Below, one piece after another: positions 1,557 through 63,299 of a stretch of DNA of 64,000 nt. Origin of the DNA: Candidatus Limnocylindrales bacterium (GTDB lineage Bacteria; Verrucomicrobiota; Verrucomicrobiia; Limisphaerales; UBA11358); NCBI GenBank assembly GCA_035604955.1, contig DATNHM010000027.1:2202-66201 (forward strand). The letters run 5' to 3'. Position 1 is the first letter of the stretch. Each line of letters begins with the position of its first letter. Under the pieces are notes generated by a model. It saw only the letters and a program-made list of their open reading frames with translations, was not told the DNA's origin and searched no databases. The translations under genes and the position numbers were made by a program.

Positions 1557-3296
1557 TCAATTGACCGCGACCGGGACCGGCTCTGCTTCCCACAACACCC
1601 GATCGCACCAGTCGCCGAACCGTTCGCCGGGATTTCGTTCCTTGGCAAATCGGGCGAGCACGGGACGCAATTCGTTTTCGATATCCGGGTCCTTGACCGT
1701 TTCCTTCCACACGCGATTAAGGCGCGTGCCGGAGACATTGCCACCAAGCCAGAGCTGATAACGCCCCGGCGCTTTGCCGACGAATCCGATTTCGGCCATG
1801 TAAGGCCGCGCGCAGCCGTTCGGGCAACCGGTCGAGCGGATGATGATTTCCTCGTCACCCAGTCCCAAATCGCCGCAAAGCTTTTCGATACGGTCAACGA
1901 GTGCGGGCAATATCCGTTCGCTTTCGGCGAGCGCGAGGCCGCACGTGGGCAGGGCGGGGCAGGCCATCGCGGCGGCGTGCAGGAGGCTTGCCTGATTTTC
2001 AACCGGAATTTTGTGCGCGGCAAAAATCGAATTGATGCCGGCTTTGTCCGCATCGTTCACGTTGGCGAGAATCACATTCTGATTCGTGGTCAGGTGGAAT
2101 CCGGTTTGCGGAAATTTCTCCGCGATTTCGCGTAGTGCGATTTTTTTTTCGTTTTTTACGCGGCCGGTTTCGACAAACAGCGTGAAAAAGTTTTTCCCGT
2201 CCACGGCCTTGTGCCAGCCGAGTAAATCGGCAGTCGTTGTGAACCGGTAAGGCCTGATCGGCGCGAATTGGATGCCGGCGCGTTTCTCGACTTCGGCGCG
2301 CGTCCAATCCACGCCGCGCTCCTCGACAACGTATTTAAAGCGCGCGTGCTTGCGGTCGGTGCGGTCGCCAAAATCACGGTGTATCGTCAGCACGGCTTTG
2401 GCGACATCAATCAATTTGTCCGGCGTGATAAATCCGAGTTCGCTCGCCAGACGCGGATACGTTTCCTTGTTTCCGTGCGTGCGTCCCATGCCGCCGCCGA
2501 CGACGAGGTTGTAACCGACTAATTTGGAGTTGGGAGATAGAAGTTGGGAGTTGGGGTTTTCCCTATCTCCCATTTCCGAACTGCCATCTTCGATGATGGC
2601 GATAAAGCCCTGGTCGTTGGTGAAAATGTCGAGGTCGTTCACCGGCGGGATGACGAACGCGGTTTTGAATTTTCGCGGCAAATAAGTTTTGCCGTAAAGC
2701 GGGTCAACGAACGCCCGATTGAACGGGTCATCAATCTTGAGCTGGAAACCGTCAATCCAGATGGCGTAATAAGCGCGGGTCTGCGGCTTCAGCGCATCCG
2801 CCACCCGCACGCAATCGCGATAGACTTCGTCACGCGCCTTGGTGTAGGCGGGCGTGGGTGGCGCGAGGACGTTACGGTTCACGTCGCCGCAAGCCGCAAG
2901 CGTGGAGAGCAGGCACTCATTGATCTTTTTGACCACCAGGCGCAGGTTCGCCTTGACGACGCCGTGAAACTGAATGGTCTGGCGGGTCGTAATTCGCAGC
3001 GTGTTGTTACCATACAGCCACGCGAGTTCGTCGAACACGCGCCACTGGTTGGCGGTCATCACACCGCCGGGAATGCGGCTGCGAATCATCATGATATATT
3101 TCCGGCCGGCCGCCGAACGCAAATCGCGGTCGTCCTGCGGATAAACGCCGTGAAATTTCAGGAATTGGGCGTCGTCGCCCGAGAACGTGTCGGCGGTCGG
3201 GTCGGCCAGCCTGGACGCGATGGTGCCCGCGAGCGTGGGAATCGCTTCCTTGATCTCTTCATTGTGCGTCAACTCGCGTGGAGCCTCTGTACTCAT
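1557..3296 (-). CDS. cysI: sulfite reductase hemoprotein (siroheme/4Fe-4S; CysI/Sir type)
   Basis: 579 aa. Motifs seen: RITTRQTIQFHGV, LVVGGGMGRTHGN, and the cluster cysteines CPALPTCGLA and TGCPNGCARP. Confidence 0.93.
   Translation of the reverse strand: MSTEAPRELTHNEEIKEAIPTLAGTIASRLADPTADTFSGDDAQFLKFHGVYPQDDRDLRSAAGRKYIMMIRSRIPGGVMTANQWRVFDELAWLYGNNTLRITTRQTIQFHGVVKANLRLVVKKINECLLSTLAACGDVNRNVLAPPTPAYTKARDEVYRDCVRVADALKPQTRAYYAIWIDGFQLKIDDPFNRAFVDPLYGKTYLPRKFKTAFVIPPVNDLDIFTNDQGFIAIIEDGSSEMGDRENPNSQLLSPNSKLVGYNLVVGGGMGRTHGNKETYPRLASELGFITPDKLIDVAKAVLTIHRDFGDRTDRKHARFKYVVEERGVDWTRAEVEKRAGIQFAPIRPYRFTTTADLLGWHKAVDGKNFFTLFVETGRVKNEKKIALREIAEKFPQTGFHLTTNQNVILANVNDADKAGINSIFAAHKIPVENQASLLHAAAMACPALPTCGLALAESERILPALVDRIEKLCGDLGLGDEEIIIRSTGCPNGCARPYMAEIGFVGKAPGRYQLWLGGNVSGTRLNRVWKETVKDPDIENELRPVLARFAKERNPGERFGDWCDRVLWEAEPVPVAVN
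2527..2571. repeat. heptamer-periodic segment with a 9-bp inverted repeat, in frame inside cysI
   Basis: gggagatag (2532-2540) is the reverse complement of ctatctccc (2563-2571). The minus strand reads AACTCCC/AACTTCT/ATCTCCC/AACTCCA units. It encodes the extra peptide SSEMGDRENPNSQLLSPNS. Confidence 0.7.
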
Positions 3297-3413: not shown

Positions 3414-3857
3414 AAAGGCTGAATTCTAAAGACTGAAGGCTAAAGTGAGGTATTTCAGGCTTTGGCTTTTTTGTCAATGGTCGTAAAGATAGCGATGAGT
3501 TGTCGTGTTTCGTCAAGCAGCTCGGCCATTCGGCCGGCTGGAACGCAGCCACTATCCACGATCAATTCGAGCCAATATTCGGTTTCATCAATTTCTTTGA
3601 GACAGTCGCCTATCTTGGAAATGAACTCCGCTTTGGAACGGGCGCGGGGGGCTTCGCGATAATTTGCGCCAACCGATGTTCCGGAGCGCAAGACCTGCCG
3701 GCCGAGCACCTGTGCGACGGCGTTGTTCCCGGGCAGTTTGGAATACATATGAATGACCCGAAGCGCAAACGCCTTTGTTCGTATTTTTAAATCCTTCGCC
3801 TGTTCGTTCATATTTCTTTAGCCTTTAGCGTTCAGCCTTCAGTCTTTGCTTTTCAGG
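3414..3857. repeat. complementary heptamer arrays bracketing the four-helix-bundle gene
   Basis: aaagactgaaggct (3428-3441) is the exact reverse complement of agccttcagtcttt (3834-3847). Both arms are 7-nt periodic: (ggctgaa ttctaaa gactgaa ggctaaa) versus (ctttagc ctttagc gttcagc cttcagt ctttgct tttcagg). Confidence 0.8.
3455..3811 (-). CDS. four-helix-bundle protein (23S rRNA intervening-sequence protein family, TIGR02436-like)
   Basis: 118 aa: FALRVIHMYSKLP...LGRQVLRSGTSVGANYREAPRARSKAEFISKIGDCLKEIDETEYWLELI. This is the typical signature of the family. Confidence 0.85.
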   Translation of the reverse strand: MNEQAKDLKIRTKAFALRVIHMYSKLPGNNAVAQVLGRQVLRSGTSVGANYREAPRARSKAEFISKIGDCLKEIDETEYWLELIVDSGCVPAGRMAELLDETRQLIAIFTTIDKKAKA

Positions 3858-6092: not shown

Positions 6093-6119
6093 TTGACACA
6101 AAATTGAAGTGACCCATCC

Positions 6120-6887
6120 ATGTTGATTCGCATTAGTTTGATTGTGGCGATTATCGCGGGGCTGCTCGCGGGCGCCCTGAACATCGTTAAAGTTCGGGAC
6201 AAGATCAGTACGCTGATTATCCAGCGGGACGATTTCCACACCGAAAGAGACCAGGCCCGGACCGAACTCGCCAGCACGAAAAAGGACCTGGCCAAGACGA
6301 AAGATGATTTGACCCAGACCCAGCAGCAATTGACGGATACCCAGGCCCAGCGCGACAAGGCGGTGGCCGACGCCAAGACGCAAACCAAACGCGCCGATGA
6401 CTTAGCGGACAAGCTGACCAAGACAACGCAGGACCGTGATGACGCGCAGGCCAAGCTGGCGGCCTATCAGGCAACGGGGCTGACCGCCGACCAGGTAGGC
6501 GGCTTGAACAAGTCGCTCAAATCCACCCAGAATGAGCTCGAGGCGGTCAAGGAGGAAAATGGTGTTTTGCAGCGCACGGTCGGCCGGTTGACTGCTCAGA
6601 TTTACGAATTGATCGGGACCAATTATGTCGTCACCTTGCGCGCGGATCTGAAAGGGAAGATCGTCGCCGTGGATCCCAAGTGGGAATTTGTGGTACTGAA
6701 CATCGGTGGGGACCAGGGCGTGCTGCCGAACGGTGAAATGCTGGTAAGCCGTGACGGCAAGCTCGTGGCCAAGGTCATCGTTCGCAGTGTTCAAAAGGAC
6801 CGCAGCATCGCCAATGTCGTTCCGGGCTGGCAACTGGGAGACGTCATTGAAGGCGATGAGGTCACCCCGGCACATCCGGCTTCCTGA
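6120..6887 (+). CDS. membrane-anchored coiled-coil protein, function unknown
   Basis: N-terminal TM helix (MLIRISLIVAIIAGLLAGAL), a roughly 150-aa charged heptad-rich region (TKKDLAKTKDDLTQTQQQL...), and a beta-rich C-terminal domain. Confidence 0.7.
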   Translation: MLIRISLIVAIIAGLLAGALNIVKVRDKISTLIIQRDDFHTERDQARTELASTKKDLAKTKDDLTQTQQQLTDTQAQRDKAVADAKTQTKRADDLADKLTKTTQDRDDAQAKLAAYQATGLTADQVGGLNKSLKSTQNELEAVKEENGVLQRTVGRLTAQIYELIGTNYVVTLRADLKGKIVAVDPKWEFVVLNIGGDQGVLPNGEMLVSRDGKLVAKVIVRSVQKDRSIANVVPGWQLGDVIEGDEVTPAHPAS

Positions 6888-6888
6888 A

Positions 6889-7056
6889 ATGCAAGGCCCG
6901 GCCATCAAATGGCTTTTGCTGCTCATGTTGGGGGTTCTTTTTTTTGGGATTACCGGCTGTGAAACCAACGAACCCGAAAATGCCTCGGTCCGGCCCTGGA
7001 ACTCGCCGCAGAGCTGGGAGGGCAATTCGCCGATGCTCGACCAGCAGCACCAGTGA
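6889..7056 (+). CDS. small lipoprotein (55 aa)
   Basis: The ATG lies 1 nt after the upstream stop. Signal peptide with a lipobox: MQGPAIKWLLLLMLGVLFFGITGC. Confidence 0.55.
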   Translation: MQGPAIKWLLLLMLGVLFFGITGCETNEPENASVRPWNSPQSWEGNSPMLDQQHQ

Positions 7057-7058
7057 GG

Positions 7059-7086
7059 TGACAAGTGACGGGTGACACGTGACAAG
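7059..7086. repeat. 4 tandem heptamers GTGACNN between convergent stops
   Basis: gtgacaa gtgacgg gtgacac gtgacaa. A single complementary gtcac is at 7095-7099. Confidence 0.75.
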
Positions 7087-9100: not shown

Positions 9101-9425
9101 GTTCGGCAAAATAAAACCCCGCCCTTGCCGTGTGTAACTCTTCCTTTGAACATGTTTTGCAACATGTGGGACGGGCTGGACTGCTTTCGACTTCCAGCGA
9201 AGGCGTGTCGGCCGCAGCCCCGGCTTGGGTCCCGGGATCGTATTATTACGGTTCAAGGATTAGTTGCCTAATCACGAACAGGGCAGGGTAAATTCAACTT
9301 TTAATCAAAGAGCAATTCGCGTTTCTGACGGGTTCAATATCGCTTGAGTCGGGCATTTTCTCAAGAAAAATTCCTGTAAATATTTTGTTGCAACCGCGAA
9401 AACCGCTTGCAAACTCGTGCCGTTC

Positions 9426-23770: not shown

Positions 23771-23822
23771 GTAGGGCACGACATAAGTGCTATCACAAGC
23801 GACTCGTTACCTCGTCGCCTAC
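23771..23822. repeat. GTAGG...CCTAC-bracketed double-hairpin element (copy A)
   Basis: Hairpin 1 is gcac-gacataa-gtgc and hairpin 2 is gcgac-tcgttacctc-gtcgc. It shares the cores CGACRTAAG and CTCGTWACCTCG with copies at 35418 and 56631. Confidence 0.75.
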
Positions 23823-34524: not shown

Positions 34525-35304
34525 CTAATCCAGAAACGCGGTCAGCGGACTCGTGGCGCTGGCGGTTTCCTGTTGCGCGGCGAGGCCGGTTTCGTAGGCG
34601 GCGCGGCCGGCTTCGACCGCGGCTTTGAAGGCCACCGCCATCCGGTTCGGGTCGCTCGATACTGCGATGGCCGTGTTGACGAGCACGGCGTCCGCGCCCA
34701 TTTCCATCGCTTCCGCCGCGTGGCTCGGCGCGCCGAGACCGGCGTCCACAACCACCGGCACCGTGGCCTGCTCGATGATGATGCGGATTTGGTCGCGCGT
34801 CTGGATACCGCGATTCGAACCGATGGGCGAACCGAGCGGCATGACTGTCGCGCAACCGGCATCCTGCAACCGCTTGGCCAGCACCGGGTCGGCGTTGATG
34901 TAAGGCAGGACGGTGAATCCTTCCTTCACCAGCATTTCGGCGGCCTTGAAGGTTTCCACCGGGTCGGGCAACAGGTAACGCGGGTCGGGATGGATTTCGA
35001 GTTTGATCCATTTCGGCAGTCCCGCGGCGGCGGCCAGGCGCGCGAGCCGGACCGCTTCCTCGGCGTTCATCGCGCCGCTGGTGTTGGGCAGCAGCAGATA
35101 TTTTTTCGGGTCAATGAATTCCAGAATGTTCGCGAACGGATCATGCTTGCCGCTCAGGTCAGCGCGGCGCAAGGCAACGGTGACCAATTCCGCGCTGCTG
35201 GCGTCGAGCGCGTCGCGCATGGCTTCCGGCGACGAGAATTTTCCCGTGCCCAGAATCAGGCGCGACCGGAAACTTCTGCCCGCGATGGTCAATGGCCGAG
35301 TCAT
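34525..35304 (-). CDS. thiG: thiazole synthase
   Basis: 259 aa. Motifs seen: [14 protein letters not shown] (Schiff-base Lys), [21 protein letters not shown]. Confidence 0.96.
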
Positions 35305-35308
35305 TTAT

Positions 35309-35343
35309 GATTTACGATTGGTGATTTACGACTGGCGGATTTT
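35309..35343. repeat. heptamer array GATTTAC/GATTGGT immediately upstream of thiG
   Basis: gatttac gattggt gatttac gactggc ggatttt, with a 14-nt super-period. Confidence 0.65.
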
Positions 35344-35417: not shown

Positions 35418-35490
35418 GTAGGAGACGACGTAAGGAGTCTCTAACTGAAAATCCGGAATCAAGAATGAGACTCGTAACCTCGTCTCCTAC
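35418..35490. repeat. GTAGG...CCTAC-bracketed double-hairpin element (copy B)
   Basis: gagac-gacgtaagga-gtctc (35422-35441), a 25-nt spacer, then gagac-tcgtaacctc-gtctc (35467-35486). The two arms also pair with each other at 18/21. Confidence 0.85.
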
Positions 35491-35498
35491 AAAACAGT

Positions 35499-36380
35499 TT
35501 ATTTGTGGCCGCCGTGCTGGCTGATCATGTCGGCGGCCTCCTTATACCATTTATCCGATTGAGCGCTGTAACCTTTGCCCACCGTCATTTGCAACGGCGT
35601 CCGGCCGGCGTTATCCTTTGCGTTTACATCCGCTCCATTGGCTAAAAGCAATTCCGTCGTATCCGGGGAACCGTTTAGCGCCGCGGAATGCAAAGGCGTT
35701 TCGCCATTATTTTCTTTCGCGTTCACATCCGCTCCATTGGCCAGCAGCAATTTTATTATGTCCGTGTGTCCCCTGGAGAATGCCGTCAGAAACAAAGGCG
35801 TCTCGCCCTTGTTGTTCCGGGCATTGACATCCAATCCTTTCGCCAGCAGCAATTCCGCCACGCCGGGATGAAAGAACCCTGCCGCAGCGTGTAACGGCGT
35901 ATTGCCATCCTTGTCCCGCACATTTAAATCGGCCCGATGTGCGAGCAACCATTTCACCATGTCCGTTTGACCATTTCTGATTGCCGCCAGCAGAGGCGTC
36001 TCGCCGGATTCGTCCTTGGCGTTGACATCCGCGCCTTTGGCAAAAAGCAGTTCTACAATCTCTTGGTGTCCCCACAGCGCCGCGCCAAGCAAAGGCGTTT
36101 GGCCGCTGTTGTTCGTGGCGCTGACATCGGCATTATTCGCCAGCAAAAATTCCACAACCTCTTTGCGATCGTAGAACGCCGCCAGATACAAAGGAGTGGT
36201 GCCGCGTAAATCCGGTCGGGGTTCCGTGTCCCGGCTGTTCACCAAATCGGAATTGGCTTTGAGCAGCGCCTTGACCTTTGCCAAATCACCACCCGCCGCT
36301 GCGTCATGAATCTCGCCGCAGAAGGCGAGAGTGCTCCAAAGCAATGCGACCAGCGGAACTGCAACAAGCTTCCGGTTCAT
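35499..36380 (-). CDS. secreted ankyrin-repeat protein
   Basis: Trimmed to the ATG at 36378-36380 (MNRKLVAVPLVALLWSTLAFC). About 8 ANK repeats (GxTPLHxAAxxGHxxxVxLLLxxGADVNA). Confidence 0.88.
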   Translation of the reverse strand: MNRKLVAVPLVALLWSTLAFCGEIHDAAAGGDLAKVKALLKANSDLVNSRDTEPRPDLRGTTPLYLAAFYDRKEVVEFLLANNADVSATNNSGQTPLLGAALWGHQEIVELLFAKGADVNAKDESGETPLLAAIRNGQTDMVKWLLAHRADLNVRDKDGNTPLHAAAGFFHPGVAELLLAKGLDVNARNNKGETPLFLTAFSRGHTDIIKLLLANGADVNAKENNGETPLHSAALNGSPDTTELLLANGADVNAKDNAGRTPLQMTVGKGYSAQSDKWYKEAADMISQHGGHK

Positions 36381-36426
36381 GGCTTGTGGGGATAGCCCGT
36401 TTGCGGGACATTGGCAAGCGTGACTT

Positions 36427-36495
36427 GTAGCAGCCGACATAAGTCGGCTCTATCTAAAAAATGAGCAGACTCATCCCGCATTGCGGGACTGCTAC
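36427..36495. repeat. GTAGCAG...CTGCTAC-bracketed double hairpin (copy G), with probable terminator function
   Basis: agccgac-ataa-gtcggct (36432-36449) and tcccgca-t-tgcggga (36474-36488). On the minus strand the second hairpin is followed by cattttttag. Confidence 0.75.
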
Positions 36496-39450: not shown

Positions 39451-39485
39451 CCGCTTTCCGCTTTGCGCTTTCTCTTTTCCGCTTT
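39451..39485. repeat. 5 tandem heptamers CCGCTTT just upstream of hisA
   Basis: ccgcttt ccgcttt gcgcttt ctctttt ccgcttt. No complementary arm is nearby. Confidence 0.75.
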
Positions 39486-41573: not shown

Positions 41574-41828
41574 ATGCAGGCGTTTTTGGAATACGTCATC
41601 AAGGGACTGGTGCAACATCCCGAGGCGGTTTCCATTACGCCGGTGGAACGCGAGGGCATGACGGTATACGAGCTGCGCCTGGATCAGCAGGACGTCGGCA
41701 AAATTATCGGCCGGCACGGTGTGACGATCAACGCCATCCGATCCTTGTTGCTGGCCGGCAGCGCCCGCAAGGGCCTGCGTTGTTCGGTGGAAATCGTCGA
41801 GGACAAACCGGCGGGTCGCAGTCAGTAG
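41574..41828 (+). CDS. KH-domain RNA-binding protein (UPF0109/YlqC family)
   Basis: The ATG at 41574 and the GKIIGRHGVTINAIRSL GxxG KH motif. It occupies the canonical position after rpsP. Confidence 0.85.
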   Translation: MQAFLEYVIKGLVQHPEAVSITPVEREGMTVYELRLDQQDVGKIIGRHGVTINAIRSLLLAGSARKGLRCSVEIVEDKPAGRSQ

Positions 41829-41902
41829 TGGGCAGTCAGTAGTCCGTAGCAAAACGACTCGCGGGCAATTGCCACTGACTATTAACTACTGACTACTGAC
41901 TG
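41819..41902. repeat. AGTCAGT-heptamer hairpin filling the KH-trmD spacer
   Basis: cagtcagtagt (41819-41829) pairs with actactgactg (41892-41902). Inner repeats pair imperfectly. The apex palindrome is ggcaattgcc (41864-41873). The left arm overlaps the KH stop and the right arm abuts the trmD GTG. Confidence 0.8.
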
Positions 41903-42571: not shown

Positions 42572-42650
42572 TTTTTAATTTTTAGTTTTGAATTTTGAAT
42601 TCGAAACGCGGCAATTAAAAATTAAGAATTAAAAATTTAAAATTGATTTT
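42572..42650. repeat. AT-rich heptamer hairpin filling the trmD-rplS spacer
   Basis: The left units tttttaa tttttag ttttgaa ttttgaa face the right units aattaaa aattaag aattaaa aatttaa. Complementarity is imperfect. Confidence 0.65.
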
Positions 42651-55240: not shown

Positions 55241-55317
55241 GATTTACGATATTCGATTTACGAGTCTCTTGAGAATTGGCTGCGGCGCGCAAATCATAGA
55301 TCGCAAATCGCAAATTA
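55241..55317. repeat. heptamer hairpin between the pyrD stop and the channel-like gene
   Basis: gatttac gatattc gatttac (55241-55261) faces gcaaatc atagatc gcaaatc gcaaatt (55290-55317), with one mismatch per unit. Confidence 0.65.
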
Positions 55318-56229
55318 CGTTTTCACCGCCACACTGCCGATGATTTCTTTTACGTCCTTCAGGCCATGCTTTTCCATGAATTCGCGGAGGCCGGCAATCA
55401 CCTGCAACGGCGTCTGCGGTTCGTAGAAATTCGCCGTGCCGACCGCCACCGCGGTTGCGCCGGCCACCATGAATTCAATCGCGTCCGCCGCGTTCTGAAT
55501 GCCGCCCATGCCGATGATGGGAATTTTCACCGCCTTGGCCGCTTCCCAGACGAGTTTGACGGCAATCGGCTTGATGCACGGCCCGGTCAGGCCGCCGGTC
55601 ACGTTCGCCAGTTTTGGCGTGCGCGTCTCAATGTCAATTGCCATGGCCGGATAGCTGTTCATGATGGACAACGCGTCGCTGCCGGCGTCCGCCGCCGCCC
55701 TGGCGAAGGGCGCGATGCACACCACGTTCGGGCTCATCTTGGTAATCAAGGGCAGCTTCGTTACCTTGCGGCAGGCGGCGACGACTTGTGCCAGTAATTT
55801 TAAGTCGGTGCCGAACTGGGCGCCGCCTTCCTTGATGTTGGGGCAGGACACGTTGAGTTCCAGCGCGCCGACGCCACCAAGCGCGTCGAAGCGCCGCGCC
55901 ACTTCCGCGTATTCTTCAACCGTGGTGCCCCAGATGTTGATGATGGTCGCGACTTTGAGTGTTTTGAGAAACGGCCAGTATTTTTTAATAAAGCCGTCCA
56001 CGCCCGGCCCTTGCAGGCCGATGGCGTTGATCAGTCCGCTCGCAACCTCGACCGTGCGCGGCGTGGCATTGCCGCGGACCGGATGCAATCGGATGCCCTT
56101 CACGACGACCGCGCCGAGCTGGTTCAGGTCGAGAAGCTGCGCGTACTCGACGCCGTAACCGAACGTCCCGGAGGCGACCATCACCGGGTTTTGCAGCGTC
56201 AGCTTGCCGATTTTGACAGAGAGGTTCAT
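55315..56229 (-). CDS. pyrD: dihydroorotate dehydrogenase, class 1B catalytic subunit
   Basis: Trimmed to the ATG at 56227-56229 (MNLSVKIGKLTLQNPVMVASGTFGYG). Carries LNVSCPN (catalytic Cys) and GGIQNAADA. Confidence 0.95.
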   Translation of the reverse strand: MNLSVKIGKLTLQNPVMVASGTFGYGVEYAQLLDLNQLGAVVVKGIRLHPVRGNATPRTVEVASGLINAIGLQGPGVDGFIKKYWPFLKTLKVATIINIWGTTVEEYAEVARRFDALGGVGALELNVSCPNIKEGGAQFGTDLKLLAQVVAACRKVTKLPLITKMSPNVVCIAPFARAAADAGSDALSIMNSYPAMAIDIETRTPKLANVTGGLTGPCIKPIAVKLVWEAAKAVKIPIIGMGGIQNAADAIEFMVAGATAVAVGTANFYEPQTPLQVIAGLREFMEKHGLKDVKEIIGSVAVKT

Positions 56230-56263
56230 GAAAGCACCTCCGGGCTGAGGGGAAAAATGGATG

Positions 56264-56361
56264 AACATTCAACATTCAACATCGAACTTCGAACATCAAA
56301 TGACTCCATTCGCCCGTCACTCTGGTTGGGCGTTGAATGTTGAATGTTGAATGTTGAATGT
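56264..56361. repeat. complementary heptamer arrays (AACATTC x5 versus GTTGAAT x4) forming a long hairpin in the pyrK-pyrD spacer
   Basis: attcaac attcaac atcgaac ttcgaac (56267-56294) faces gttgaat x4 (56332-56359). The loop is about 37 nt. Confidence 0.85.
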
Positions 56362-56383
56362 TTTCCACCCATAAATTGAAATC

Positions 56384-57274
56384 TCATTTTGTGGTTTCCC
56401 AAATAATCTGTCTCGCATCAAACACCGGCCCCTCGGTGCAGGTGCGTTGGTATTCCCAGCCGTCGCCGGTTTTGACCGGGATCACGCAGGTCAGGCAAAC
56501 GCCGACGCCGCAGCACATGTGTTCGTCCATCGAAAGTTCCGCCGGGACATTGAAATCCCCGGCGATTTTGCCAACCGCCTTCAACATTCCCGTCGGACCG
56601 CACGCAAAAATTTTGACCTTCCGAACTGCCGGAGCCGACGTCAGGAGGCTCTGACCCTTTTTTGATTTTTGAATTTGAGCCTCGTTGCCTCGGCTCCCGC
56701 GCAATTCGACCAGCAAAGGTTGCGTGACCAGACCTTTTTCACCGTGGCTGCCGTCCTCGGTGGTCACGCGTACGTCCCAGCCGAGCGCCTGAAATTCCTT
56801 TTCACACAGGATATCCACGCGCCGCCGGCCGCCGACAAAGGCGATGCCTTTCAGGGGCGAGCGTTGCGCGAGCAGATACATCGCCGCCATACCGTAACCG
56901 CCGGCGACGAGCAAGGGCGTCCCGCCGCCGCGCTTGGGCACGGTGAATCCGTGGCCGAGCGGCGCGATGACGCTGAGTTCCTCGCCGGCACCCAGCCGGG
57001 CGAGCGCGTCGGTGCCTTTGCCGACAGTTTTGTAGAGGATGGAAAAAGTGTCGCCGGAAACCTGGAAGATGCTGAACGGCCGGCGGAGCAGGGCCTCCTT
57101 CAGCGACAGGACACGAACATGTGCGAATTGACCGGGCTGGATGAGCGGCGCGATTTGCGGCGCGCGCAGGACGAGACGGAAATAAGAATCAGTGTCGCGC
57201 TCGTTGGAGACTATCTGGACAGTTTGCTCAAGCATCGGCGTCGCCAGCATGGTCGGCAACGGCAAACCTGTCAA
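56384..57274 (-). CDS. pyrK: dihydroorotate dehydrogenase electron-transfer subunit (FAD / 2Fe-2S)
   Basis: RPFSI FAD motif, GGYGMAAM, ACGPTGMLKAV, and the cluster CCGVGVCLTC...C. The true start may be an internal Met (57250 or 57235). Confidence 0.9.
   Translation of the reverse strand: MTGLPLPTMLATPMLEQTVQIVSNERDTDSYFRLVLRAPQIAPLIQPGQFAHVRVLSLKEALLRRPFSIFQVSGDTFSILYKTVGKGTDALARLGAGEELSVIAPLGHGFTVPKRGGGTPLLVAGGYGMAAMYLLAQRSPLKGIAFVGGRRRVDILCEKEFQALGWDVRVTTEDGSHGEKGLVTQPLLVELRGSRGNEAQIQKSKKGQSLLTSAPAVRKVKIFACGPTGMLKAVGKIAGDFNVPAELSMDEHMCCGVGVCLTCVIPVKTGDGWEYQRTCTEGPVFDARQIIWETTK
56631..56697. repeat. double-hairpin element (copy C) in frame inside pyrK
   Basis: gagcc-gacgtcagga-ggctc (56632-56651), a 25-nt spacer, then gagcc-tcgttgcctc-ggctc (56677-56696). 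It has the same 67-nt architecture as 35421-35487. It is translated as about 23 extra residues (GSRGNEAQIQKSKKGQSLLTSAP). Confidence 0.85.
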
Positions 57275-62042: not shown

Positions 62043-63299
62043 ATGGAACGACTGCCCGGTTTCCGCGATTTTTATCCCGAACCCCTGCCGTCCCGCGACA
62101 CGGGATGGAGTTTTGACGCCCGCCAATACGTCTTCGATAAATGGCGTGAAACCGCCCGGCGCTACGGCTTCCGCGAATACGACGGACCCCCGCTGGAATC
62201 ACTCGAACTCTTTACCACCAAAAGCGGCGACGAAATCGTCGGGCAGCTCTACAATTTCACCGACAAAGGCGACCGCGCCGTAGCGCTCCGGCCGGAAATG
62301 ACGCCGACGCTGGCGCGCATGGTTGCTGCGCACGAACGCAACTACAAGAAACCCATCAAGTGGTTCGCCATCCCGCAACTGTTCCGCTACGAACGGCAGC
62401 AGAAGGGCCGGTTGCGCGAGCATTTCCAGTTCAACGCCGACCTCATCGGCGAGACCGATCCGGCGGCGGACGCGGAACTCATCGCGCTGCTCATTGACAC
62501 GCTGCGGTCATTCGGCCTGACCGAACAGGATTTTATCATCCGCCTGAGCAGCCGGAACGCGTGGCACGAATTTTATGAAGCCGGAAGTCAGAAGTCAGAA
62601 GTCAGAAGTGCCAGCCACGAATACGAATTTTTCCAGACGATTGACAAACTGGAGCGCACGCCGCCGGAAGAGAGTGAAAAGAAGCTGGCCGCGCTCGGAT
62701 TTTCATTGGCCGACGTGAACCGGTTCATCGAATCCGGCAAACCGGCGGCGGGGTTGCAGAGCATTCTCGACAATCTCGCGGCGCGCGGTCTGCGCAATTT
62801 TGTGAAAGTGGATTACCACGTCATTCGCGGGCTGGCGTATTACACCGGCGTGGTGTTTGAGGCATTCGATGCCCAAGGCGAGTTCCGCGCCATCGCCGGC
62901 GGCGGGCGTTACGACAACCTCGTCAAGCTCGTCAGCGGCGGCAAGGTGGATTTGCCCGCGCTCGGCTTCGGCATGGGCGACGTAGTGCTGTTGGAACTGC
63001 TCAAAGCGCGCGGTTTACTGCCGAAATTCGACGCTGTTACCGATGTTTTTGTTTTGATTGAAGACGAAACATTGCGCGTCCAATCACTCAAGCTCGTACA
63101 GGAGTTGCGCGCCGCCGGTTTTGCGGTGGATTATCCGCTGACACCCGTCAAGCCGGACAAGCAATTCAAACGAGCGCAGGAGTTGAAGGTGGGTCACACC
63201 GCCCGCGTGGAAAGCGACGCCTATGTGCGCATCCGGAATTTGAAGACCCGCGATGAAGTCGTCGCTGGCTTTGCCGACGTGGCGAATCATCTGGGATGA
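62043..63299 (+). CDS. hisS: histidine--tRNA ligase
   Basis: 418 aa. Class II motifs seen: MERLPGFRDFYP, ALRPEMT, FRYERQQKGRLREHFQ, GGGRYDNL. Confidence 0.96.
   Translation: MERLPGFRDFYPEPLPSRDTGWSFDARQYVFDKWRETARRYGFREYDGPPLESLELFTTKSGDEIVGQLYNFTDKGDRAVALRPEMTPTLARMVAAHERNYKKPIKWFAIPQLFRYERQQKGRLREHFQFNADLIGETDPAADAELIALLIDTLRSFGLTEQDFIIRLSSRNAWHEFYEAGSQKSEVRSASHEYEFFQTIDKLERTPPEESEKKLAALGFSLADVNRFIESGKPAAGLQSILDNLAARGLRNFVKVDYHVIRGLAYYTGVVFEAFDAQGEFRAIAGGGRYDNLVKLVSGGKVDLPALGFGMGDVVLLELLKARGLLPKFDAVTDVFVLIEDETLRVQSLKLVQELRAAGFAVDYPLTPVKPDKQFKRAQELKVGHTARVESDAYVRIRNLKTRDEVVAGFADVANHLG
62584..62611. repeat. tandem heptamers GAAGTCA x3 (+1 imperfect) in frame inside hisS
   Basis: gaagtca gaagtca gaagtca gaagtgc, translated as SQKSEVRSA. 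It is flanked by the 9-nt direct repeats acgaatttt at 62566-62574 and 62623-62631. Confidence 0.9.

Follow-up and report, generated by a model that had tools for sequence, protein, structure and literature searches.

A pair of inverted GTAG hairpins read in frame within pyrK of a Limisphaerales genome, very probably the trace of one ancient REPIN insertion

How does a palindromic repeat come to lie within an essential gene without breaking its reading frame, and why does it remain there? The question is raised by a stretch of 64,000 nucleotides (hereafter, the window) of contig DATNHM010000027.1, from a genome assembly assigned to the Limisphaerales (Verrucomicrobiota). The minus strand of the window carries pyrK, the gene for the electron-transfer subunit of dihydroorotate dehydrogenase B, and pyrK in turn contains an element of two hairpins. 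This element is best read as a REPIN (REP doublet forming hairpin), which is to say two repetitive extragenic palindromic (REP) hairpins headed by GTAG and arranged in inverted orientation around a short spacer. It is highly probable, in our judgment, that a REPIN linked to a transposase of the RAYT (REP-associated tyrosine transposase) type inserted once, anciently and in frame, in a loop of PyrK.

The original prediction had described a 67-nt double hairpin in pyrK (56631-56697; g-gagcc-gacgtcagga-ggctc-(25 nt)-gagcc-tcgttgcctc-ggctc-c) and an intergenic copy of the same architecture (35421-35487; g-gagac-gacgtaagga-gtctc-(25 nt)-gagac-tcgtaacctc-gtctc-c). Both layouts were reproduced exactly on re-reading. 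The comparison between them was equally sound: the loops show one and two differences, the spacer measures 25 nt in both, and the same A/T to C/G change is found at the same position of all four half-stems. The bounds held for the 67-nt core but fell 3 nt short at each end, where the heads of the element are located (GTAG...CTAC at 35418-35490 in the intergenic copy). Searching the window for the arm pattern gave four matches, the two arms of each copy, versus 0.01 expected from dinucleotide shuffles. The order on the coding strand of pyrK is a degenerate head GCGG (56700-56697), arm A with the loop GCAA, an A-rich and heptamer-like spacer, arm B, and a degenerate head CGGC (56631-56628). The pyrK copy is free of stop codons on the minus strand and would be translated in frame as RGSRGNEAQIQKSKKGQSLLTSAPA. 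Two further relatives bring the elements in the window to four (Table 1). The second dimer, located through a partner pattern near 23800, has stems that differ between its arms, each of them self-complementary, and both intergenic dimers have GTAG at the left end and CTAC at the right. The remaining relative is a singlet, 5 nt past the stop of the upstream gene, whose clamp also encloses an unrelated small hairpin. Its fully paired stem (GAC...GTC replacing GAC...GGA) is, by its sequence, a further compensatory variant.

The REP unit of this family is 24 nt in length and consists of GTAG, one base S, a stem of 4-5 bp (AGNC/GNCT), a tandem G·A/A·G, a closing pair and a tetraloop. The commonest tetraloops in 166 unique arms were GTGA (61), GTAA (43), GTCA (29) and GTTA (11), GNRA-like as judged by sequence, and the closing pair was C-G in 70 and G-C in 63. 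The two bases of this closing pair (positions 12/17) can pair within the arm in 167 of 174 cases (96%); between arms they would do so in only ~40% of elements. Position 5 pairs between arms in 77 of 87 cases, by which the GTAG/CTAC clamp is lengthened. The pairs within arms are 94-95% paired, and at positions 8/21 and 12/17 both partners have changed. We compared two folds over 71 distinct elements from outside pyrK, at least 87% of which have GTAG and CTAC at columns 1-4 and 45-48. The clamp with two hairpins left 94.3% of cells paired, with 141 cells changed on both sides, and its covariation of 0.342 exceeded the 0.107 of shuffles (0/500 reached it) and the slid controls, all of which were below 0.07. 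The single long hairpin left 86.8% paired with a covariation of 0.135, and its pairs 12-37 and 17-32 were broken in 48 of the 71. For either strand RNAfold favors a single long hairpin with bulges (about -34 to -38 kcal/mol, z about -5). Considering that covariation disfavors the long hairpin, we retain it as an alternative fold only, and the double hairpin of the original prediction is the better supported structure. At Rfam gathering thresholds the sole match in the window is a 6S RNA elsewhere in it, and at permissive thresholds the element itself gave only chance-level matches (E about 4).

The enzyme that hosts the element is intact. Its Pfam DHODB_Fe-S_bind domain is matched, and the reading frame and the Fe-S motif are kept, in agreement with the prediction of an insertion that spared the frame. 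The listed open reading frame (ORF) begins at TTG 57274; the start is most likely the ATG of Table 1, which is also where the orthologues begin. The insert occupies approximately residues 186-208. The claim that this PyrK is about 40 residues longer than is typical was not borne out: the distance between the DGSxG and ACGP motifs is 54 residues versus 32 without the insert, so that the insert contributes 22, and insert-free orthologues are of 262-268 aa. The PyrK chains 5ksw_B and 1ep3_B of the PDB align to residues 5-176 and 214-283, with the insert left unaligned between the two segments. An AlphaFold model was built from a 41-sequence alignment and, given its mean pLDDT (predicted local distance difference test) of 56.7, was used only for the local contrast between the insert and the Rossmann-like part. 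The latter has blocks of pLDDT 71-92, whereas residues 189-208, between the helix 176-186 and the strand 212-218, are below 50 and unstructured. Thus, modeling with the insert predicts a disordered loop flanked by confident Rossmann elements, and the simplest reading of the model is that of a tolerated surface loop.

That the sequence is an insertion follows from its absence in some orthologues. The closest PyrK proteins come from metagenome-assembled genomes (MAGs) of Limisphaerales and Verrucomicrobiia, and our material comprised 120 aligned homologues and the DNA of 78 metagenomic pyrK loci. A single site between the DGSxG and ACGP motifs is found in four states in these loci: no insert (32 aa between the anchors, 19 loci), a 7-aa-periodic stretch only (35 aa, 26 loci; for example RTPNSELRTPK from (GAACTCC)n), the left arm with the periodic stretch (43-50 aa, 10 loci), and the full element (53-76 aa, 23 loci). 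These counts are approximate, as the regular-expression classification mislabels some forms with nested inserts. The coding strand of the orthologues reads C-GTAG-[G/C]AGCC-GA-G-GTAA-C-GA-GGCTC, then the spacer, then GAGCC-TC-C-TYAC-G-TC-GGCT[C/G]-CTAC, and the GTAG/CTAC heads are kept in most of the orthologous copies. The spacer of the orthologues is an overt heptanucleotide array, (GGAAAGC)n or (GAAATCC)n, of 25, 43, 46 or 52 nt, all lengths being 1 mod 3, as the frame requires.

The repeat is dispersed well beyond pyrK. A scan of species-representative genomes returned at least 120 loci, almost all from Verrucomicrobiota MAGs, and the sequences indicate a family widespread in this phylum. 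The scan gave about 100 well-formed dimers with spacers of up to 70 nt, of which 80, drawn irrespective of location, are outside pyrK (spacers of 7-65 nt, mode 25). Twenty-eight of the 80 lie in a frame that stays open over 240 nt or more to either side, and 17 of 20 tested intragenic copies were in real proteins with Pfam domains; hence at least 17 of the 80 (at least 21%) are intragenic. The notion that the family is normally confined to spacers does not survive this count, and PyrK is not special as an insertion host. Other proteins that bear the element are ArgJ (twice), Hsp70/DnaK, MnmA, UvrA, UvrB, two P-type ATPases, xanthine dehydrogenase, a class-III aminotransferase, AcrB, cytochrome c peroxidase and an Eco57I-type methylase, among others, and in about ten of the 17 one domain envelope encloses the element. 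Two of the three frames per strand run open through the arms, and several peptides recur accordingly (SSRREEA/SRGNEA, VAADVRRL, QSLLTSAAT, EPPHVGSY, RASSRRLL). With a dispersed family, an insert that some orthologues lack and an intact frame, the interpretation of a structured repeat in pyrK is supported. Apart from this, some repeat-bearing loci (L092, L107, L141, L152) came from MAGs whose titles name Bifidobacterium, Klebsiella or, in a few cases, Acidobacteria; these are probably mis-binned or mislabelled contigs.

We used the E. coli RayT as a probe against all ORFs of the sampled loci, and it matched an ORF at L100:935-1561 (4e-6) and a truncated ORF in L144, two RAYT ORFs in the 1.48 Mb sampled, a number compatible with few RAYT copies per genome. 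The L100 ORF matched NCBIfam REP_Tyr_transpos (NF047646; E 9e-12), has the HUH motif DHIHLVW and the tyrosine motif YVLMNPVKDG, and has 1375 homologues, many of which are named "REP element-mobilizing transposase RayT" by JGI. Its identity as a RAYT is based on NCBIfam, the E. coli RayT match, the motifs and these source names. Inverted arms are found within ~100 nt on both sides of all six independent RAYT genes examined (L100, L144, L203/204, L205, L206, L207-211). A dedicated tyrosine (HUH/Y1) transposase of the RAYT type, acting on single-stranded DNA, would most likely be the enzyme that copied the family. No target-site duplication was found, as the direct repeats of 2-3 nt in 9 of the 80 elements are at chance level, and there is a pyrimidine preference just 5' of GTAG; both are as expected for HUH/Y1 enzymes. 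A reading as a miniature inverted-repeat transposable element (MITE) was rejected because the target-site duplication was not found. Arm arrays occur near certain RAYT genes: approximately 30 arms in 3 kb beside a PemK-type toxin gene (L203:2150-5056) and a 132-nt tandem array (L205:2555-3906). At L100:1516-1539 the C-terminus of the RAYT itself holds a translated arm (…GGQSLLTSVATETEGGS), such that the transposase ORF is extended by its own repeat.

Did the element enter pyrK once or many times? All 22 full pyrK copies that we analysed have arm A followed by arm B, in identical phase and with an identical left junction. Among independent copies at other sites, the orders A/B, B/A and B/B all occur. 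The shared site, arm order and phase point to one ancestral insertion, inherited vertically. A site hit repeatedly and independently in different lineages is the alternative here. It would account for the interspersion of insert states on the neighbor-joining (NJ) tree of PyrK, for the second small GTAG palindrome nested in arm A (L012, L041), and it has a parallel in ArgJ, where the element occupies one site in two genomes in opposite arm order and with different stems. The uniformity of the 22 copies argues against it, as does the fact that partial forms share their heptamer unit with neighboring forms of left arm plus heptamers, as in stepwise loss. We consider such a hot spot very unlikely. 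Counting of gains and losses on the NJ tree was dropped, its resolution being too poor (~250 aa, 18 changes), so that the single origin is argued from site, arm order and phase. The heptamer-only forms cluster on the tree with forms that bear the left arm and matching heptamers, which suggests that arms were lost stepwise; the direction is read from these sequences, the tree being too weak as proof. The idea that a structured repeat family colonised pyrK stands, with the qualification that the insertion is old and common to a large clade, and not a recent event in this genome. The argJ dimers mentioned above are at the same codon position in their two genomes (L089:3238-3304, L096:6893-6959), and this pair could reflect either a hot spot for insertion or an element that has been inverted.

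The window copy appears to be a late stage in the decay of the heads. In relatives that are 92-96% identical in protein sequence, the left head goes from GTAG to GCAG (P0002) to the GCGG of the window, and the right head from CTAC to CTGC (P0001) to CGGC. As a result, one position of the clamp in the window copy is re-paired (C-G) and one is broken. The loop has changed from GTAA to GCAA, by which the GNRA form is retained. The E. coli RayT binds and cleaves single-stranded REP sequences and requires GTAG (PMC3733652). As both GTAG heads are lost, the window's copy is probably immobile as a transposase substrate, by analogy with that enzyme.

The arms are conserved in sequence across pyrK orthologues. 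Third-position entropy was 0.395 bits in the arms (16 sites) versus 0.839 bits at 100 flanking third positions (one-sided Mann-Whitney p = 3e-4), and the first and second codon positions showed no difference (0.215 in the arms, 0.194 in the flanks). With third positions constrained and first and second positions equal to the flanks, the constraint is on the nucleotides and not on the peptide. The covariation of the clamp is visible in the protein, as RSSR occurs with SAAT in 32 proteins and RRSR with SAPT in 20, the S-P combination being found in two. These observations bear on the proposal that the insert is a functional PyrK peptide, selected at the protein level, with the palindromic DNA incidental. 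Conservation of SRGNEAQ and QSLLTSA(A/P)T across orthologues that are 78-96% identical is what the proposal has in its favor. The orthologues do share the peptide, but the DNA that encodes it is a palindromic GTAG repeat, and matching DNA is found in intergenic regions and, in other frames, in unrelated proteins (VAADVRRL, EPPHVGSY, RASSRRLL). The original prediction would have been refuted by a shared peptide with non-palindromic coding DNA, and this comparison thus turns out in its favor. Furthermore, conservation is equal at all three codon positions, the R-P/S-A covariation maps to a base pair, and the insert is predicted to be disordered and is missing from many orthologues. Selection for the peptide is thus extremely unlikely.

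The same constraint raises the prospect that selection maintains the pyrK hairpins for a function of the nucleic acid, beyond mere tolerance of the insert. The candidate functions would be an mRNA structure that acts on stability, on RNase processing or on a translational pause from one PyrK domain to the next, or else a binding site in DNA for RAYT or another protein. This proposal agrees with an ancient REPIN insertion as to origin and differs as to why the element persists. It draws on arm third positions half as variable as the flanks, on the compensatory changes in the clamp and stems, and on the preservation of the GNRA form through the GTAA to GCAA change. A preprint (bioRxiv 10.1101/2021.07.10.451892) also argues that REPIN-RAYT systems are maintained by vertical descent over millions of years. 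Gene conversion that homogenises the copies, as an alternative cause of arm conservation, was not supported: the pyrK stem variant differs from the other copies in the window or locus, which speaks for selection over simple conversion. Against a selected function are the many orthologues with an intact pyrK that have lost one or both arms, the window copy without its heads, the occurrence of the element in genes unrelated to pyrK, in either arm order and in various frames (which disfavors a gene-specific role), and the small number of third-position sites. We regard selection of the pyrK hairpins for such a function as a serious possibility, if an unlikely one.

Our preferred reading, that of a single ancient REPIN insertion, can be laid out as a sequence of events. 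One dimer would have entered pyrK in the ancestor of a large Limisphaerales-type clade and landed in the loop between the last helix and the last strand of the Rossmann-like domain. As the arms are free of stops in two of three frames and the arms with the spacer measure a multiple of three, the loop would only have been lengthened by ~22 residues, which was tolerated. Vertical inheritance would have followed, the spacer growing or shrinking in steps that kept the frame, and in some lineages the loss of one arm or of both would have left a remnant of heptamer repeats. In the lineage of the window both GTAG heads mutated, and the copy would probably no longer serve as a transposase substrate. 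Several observations weigh against this account. The NJ tree of PyrK (~250 aa) intermixes the insert states and calls for 18 changes. Strong nucleotide-level constraint on the arms is unlike a dead, neutral relic. Pfam returned no match on the RAYT candidates, Y1_Tnp included, and the NCBIfam match is below its curated cut-off. The 64-kb window has no RAYT gene, and the association with RAYT is seen only in relatives. Lastly, the AlphaFold model is poor overall.

Intragenic GTAG REPs, including those of a verrucomicrobium, are already published, and the family described here is a different sequence family of that kind. Di Nocera, De Gregorio and Rocco (2013, BMC Genomics 14:522; PMC3733652) defined the GTAG REP superfamily, its dimers and its RAYT "REPtrons", and reported that intragenic REPs encode 20-30 aa and are most numerous in the verrucomicrobium Opitutus terrae, both uvrA genes of which are included. 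Their repeats have stems of 5-13 bp, frequent inverted dimers with spacers of 20-100 bp whose ends may be complementary, RAYT genes flanked by repeats, and intragenic dimers that encode 20-30 aa, often in the repair genes uvrA and uvrB; all of this is shared with the elements described here. The GTAG end and the short imperfect palindrome with complementary changes place our elements in that superfamily; the unit of 24 nt falls within its range of 20-40 bp, for which loops of 2-20 nt are given. The peptides of O. terrae GTAG-17 to GTAG-20 (VGPALAAG, for example) are unlike the SRGNEAQ and QSLLTSAAT found here, which indicates a different sequence family. Also different are the Limisphaerales/Pedosphaera-type host, the spacer that is often a heptanucleotide array, and the tracing of an intragenic copy through many orthologues. 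The text of PMC3733652 makes no mention of a tetraloop, a GNRA motif or heptamers, and we found in it no clade-wide tracing of one intragenic copy, no nucleotide-level constraint and no flipping closing pair.

Other systems are similar in part. REPIN-RAYT systems (Bertels & Rainey 2011, PMC3116915; Bertels et al. 2017, PMC5581495) share the inverted REPs around a spacer, foldable as one long hairpin, the RAYT gene flanked by REPs and the long vertical persistence. As described, they are extragenic by definition and were characterised in Pseudomonas and Enterobacteria, with RAYTs of groups 2 and 3, whereas a large share is intragenic here. Our family thus has the inverted dimer and, in relatives, the REP-flanked RAYT, and departs from an extragenic location (at least 17 of 80 in genes). 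The Rickettsia palindromic elements (RPEs) are the classical analogue in function; according to PMC3733652, they are likewise in-frame palindromic repeats that add a short surface peptide to proteins that are probably functional. RPE-4 and RPE-6 are of the CGTC type, with no dedicated transposase known, RPE-1 is longer, and the host is an obligate intracellular alphaproteobacterium. Membership in the RPEs was rejected, as the tag is GTAG and not CGTC and the host is of the Verrucomicrobiota; the similarity is one of behavior only. MITEs (Correia/NEMIS, Nezha) are likewise small and non-autonomous, have inverted ends and are able to fold as RNA. They have transposase-type terminal inverted repeats and target-site duplications, unlike the present elements, for which no duplication was found and in which each end is itself a hairpin.

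Table 1. Location of the pyrK element, its relatives and other features within the window
Feature	Position	Strand	Description
REPIN-like dimer in pyrK	56628..56700	-	read in frame as (R)GSRGNEAQIQKSKKGQSLLTSAPA
Arm A, pyrK copy	56677..56700	-	GCGG-GAGCC-GA-G-GCAA-C-GA-GGCTC; 3 mismatches vs arm A consensus
Spacer, pyrK copy	56652..56676	-	coding strand AAATTCA AAAATCA AAAAAGG GTCA; 25 nt
Arm B, pyrK copy	56628..56651	+	+ strand reading GCCG-GAGCC-GA-C-GTCA-G-GA-GGCTC
Intergenic REPIN-like dimer	35418..35490	+	intact GTAG...CTAC heads, GAGAC/GTCTC stems
Degenerate short-spacer dimer	23771..23822	+	GTAGG clamp; left hairpin GCAC/GTGC, right hairpin GCGAC/GTCGC
REP singlet, fully paired sub-type	36427..36495	+	GTAG-C-AGCCGAC-ATAA-GTCGGCT-C inside GTAGCAG...CTGCTAC clamp
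pyrK, dihydroorotate dehydrogenase B electron-transfer subunit	56384..57250	-	288 aa from ATG 57250
pyrD, catalytic subunit	55315..56268	-	intact (Pfam DHO_dh), immediately downstream of pyrK
Ankyrin-repeat gene	35499..36440	-	
6S RNA gene	9112-9292	-	Rfam RF00013, 68 bits
Heptamer array	2526-2555		
Heptamer array	3816-3847		
Heptamer array	7056-7084		
Heptamer array	35303-35335		
Heptamer array	39451-39485		
Heptamer array	41820-41849		(AGTCAGT)n
Heptamer array	41874-41901		(ACTGACT)n
Heptamer array	42572-42644		
Heptamer array	55288-55315		
Heptamer array	56263-56297		(AACATTC)n
Heptamer array	56332-56362		(GAATGTT)n
Heptamer array	62584-62609		

Of the neighboring genes, that of the ankyrin-repeat protein ends 9 nt from the intergenic dimer, which in turn precedes the following gene of the same strand. 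The ankyrin-repeat gene (35.5-36.4 kb) is bracketed by two elements and had been a candidate for a transposase; the candidate was rejected on account of its product.

Heptanucleotide arrays are a recurrent feature of this DNA. The window has 13 period-7 tandem arrays of 4-5 copies, with a different unit at each site (Table 1). The (AGTCAGT)n array opposes (ACTGACT)n as an inverted pair that could form a long hairpin, and the (AACATTC)n and (GAATGTT)n arrays of the pyrK-pyrD spacer form another such pair. Perfect three-copy arrays in the 1.48 Mb of verrucomicrobial DNA numbered 87 for period 7 versus 0-13 for periods 5, 6, 8 and 9, a figure inflated by the 80 pyrK loci it includes. A literature search for heptamer arrays in Verrucomicrobia turned up nothing relevant. 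Within pyrK, armless orthologues have an in-frame heptamer array of a constant 35 aa between the anchors (L015, L029, L036, L039, L043, L044, L052, L059, L066, L067, L069, L070, L073, L074, L080). The units differ by lineage (GAACTCC, GAAATCA, GAAATCG, GAAATCC, GAATGCG, GAAGTCA, GAAATTC) and the peptides are 7-aa-periodic, such as RTPNSELRTPK and RNQKSEIRNYK. The palindrome nested in the loop of arm A is of 33 nt (CCCGTCCTCCGTAGCAGTACTGCGGAGGGTGGA), has its own GTAG and the peptide PVLRSxTAEGG, and is carried by L012 (about 6100-6135) and L041 and by the proteins P0041, P0073, P0085 and P0097. Other nested or adjacent in-frame inserts in pyrK are GLPRRSAAEAG (P0030, P0095) and RRNATQLKNYHPA (L005, L025).

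The odd 22-residue loop of an essential enzyme is thus explained as the footprint of a mobile palindromic repeat, and repeats of this kind are a routine source of extra length in the housekeeping proteins (DnaK, UvrA/B, ArgJ, MnmA, PyrK) of a phylum that has been little studied. For annotation, SRGNEAQ…QSLLTSAAT, SSRREEA, VAADVRRL and EPPHVGSY in verrucomicrobial proteins are to be taken as repeat insertions and not as conserved domains. The pyrK locus, with its conserved arms and its orthologous series of empty, full, one-arm and spacer-only forms, is a convenient test case of whether REPIN hairpins are selected or merely persistent. The broader proposition, that purifying selection on the nucleic acid has long preserved intragenic REPIN hairpins within essential genes of Verrucomicrobiota, is in our estimate distinctly unlikely. 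If true, it would give REPIN hairpins a host-level role in coding mRNA or DNA, such as RAYT- or RNase-dependent control, and their heptanucleotide spacers would serve as a module able to expand in frame.

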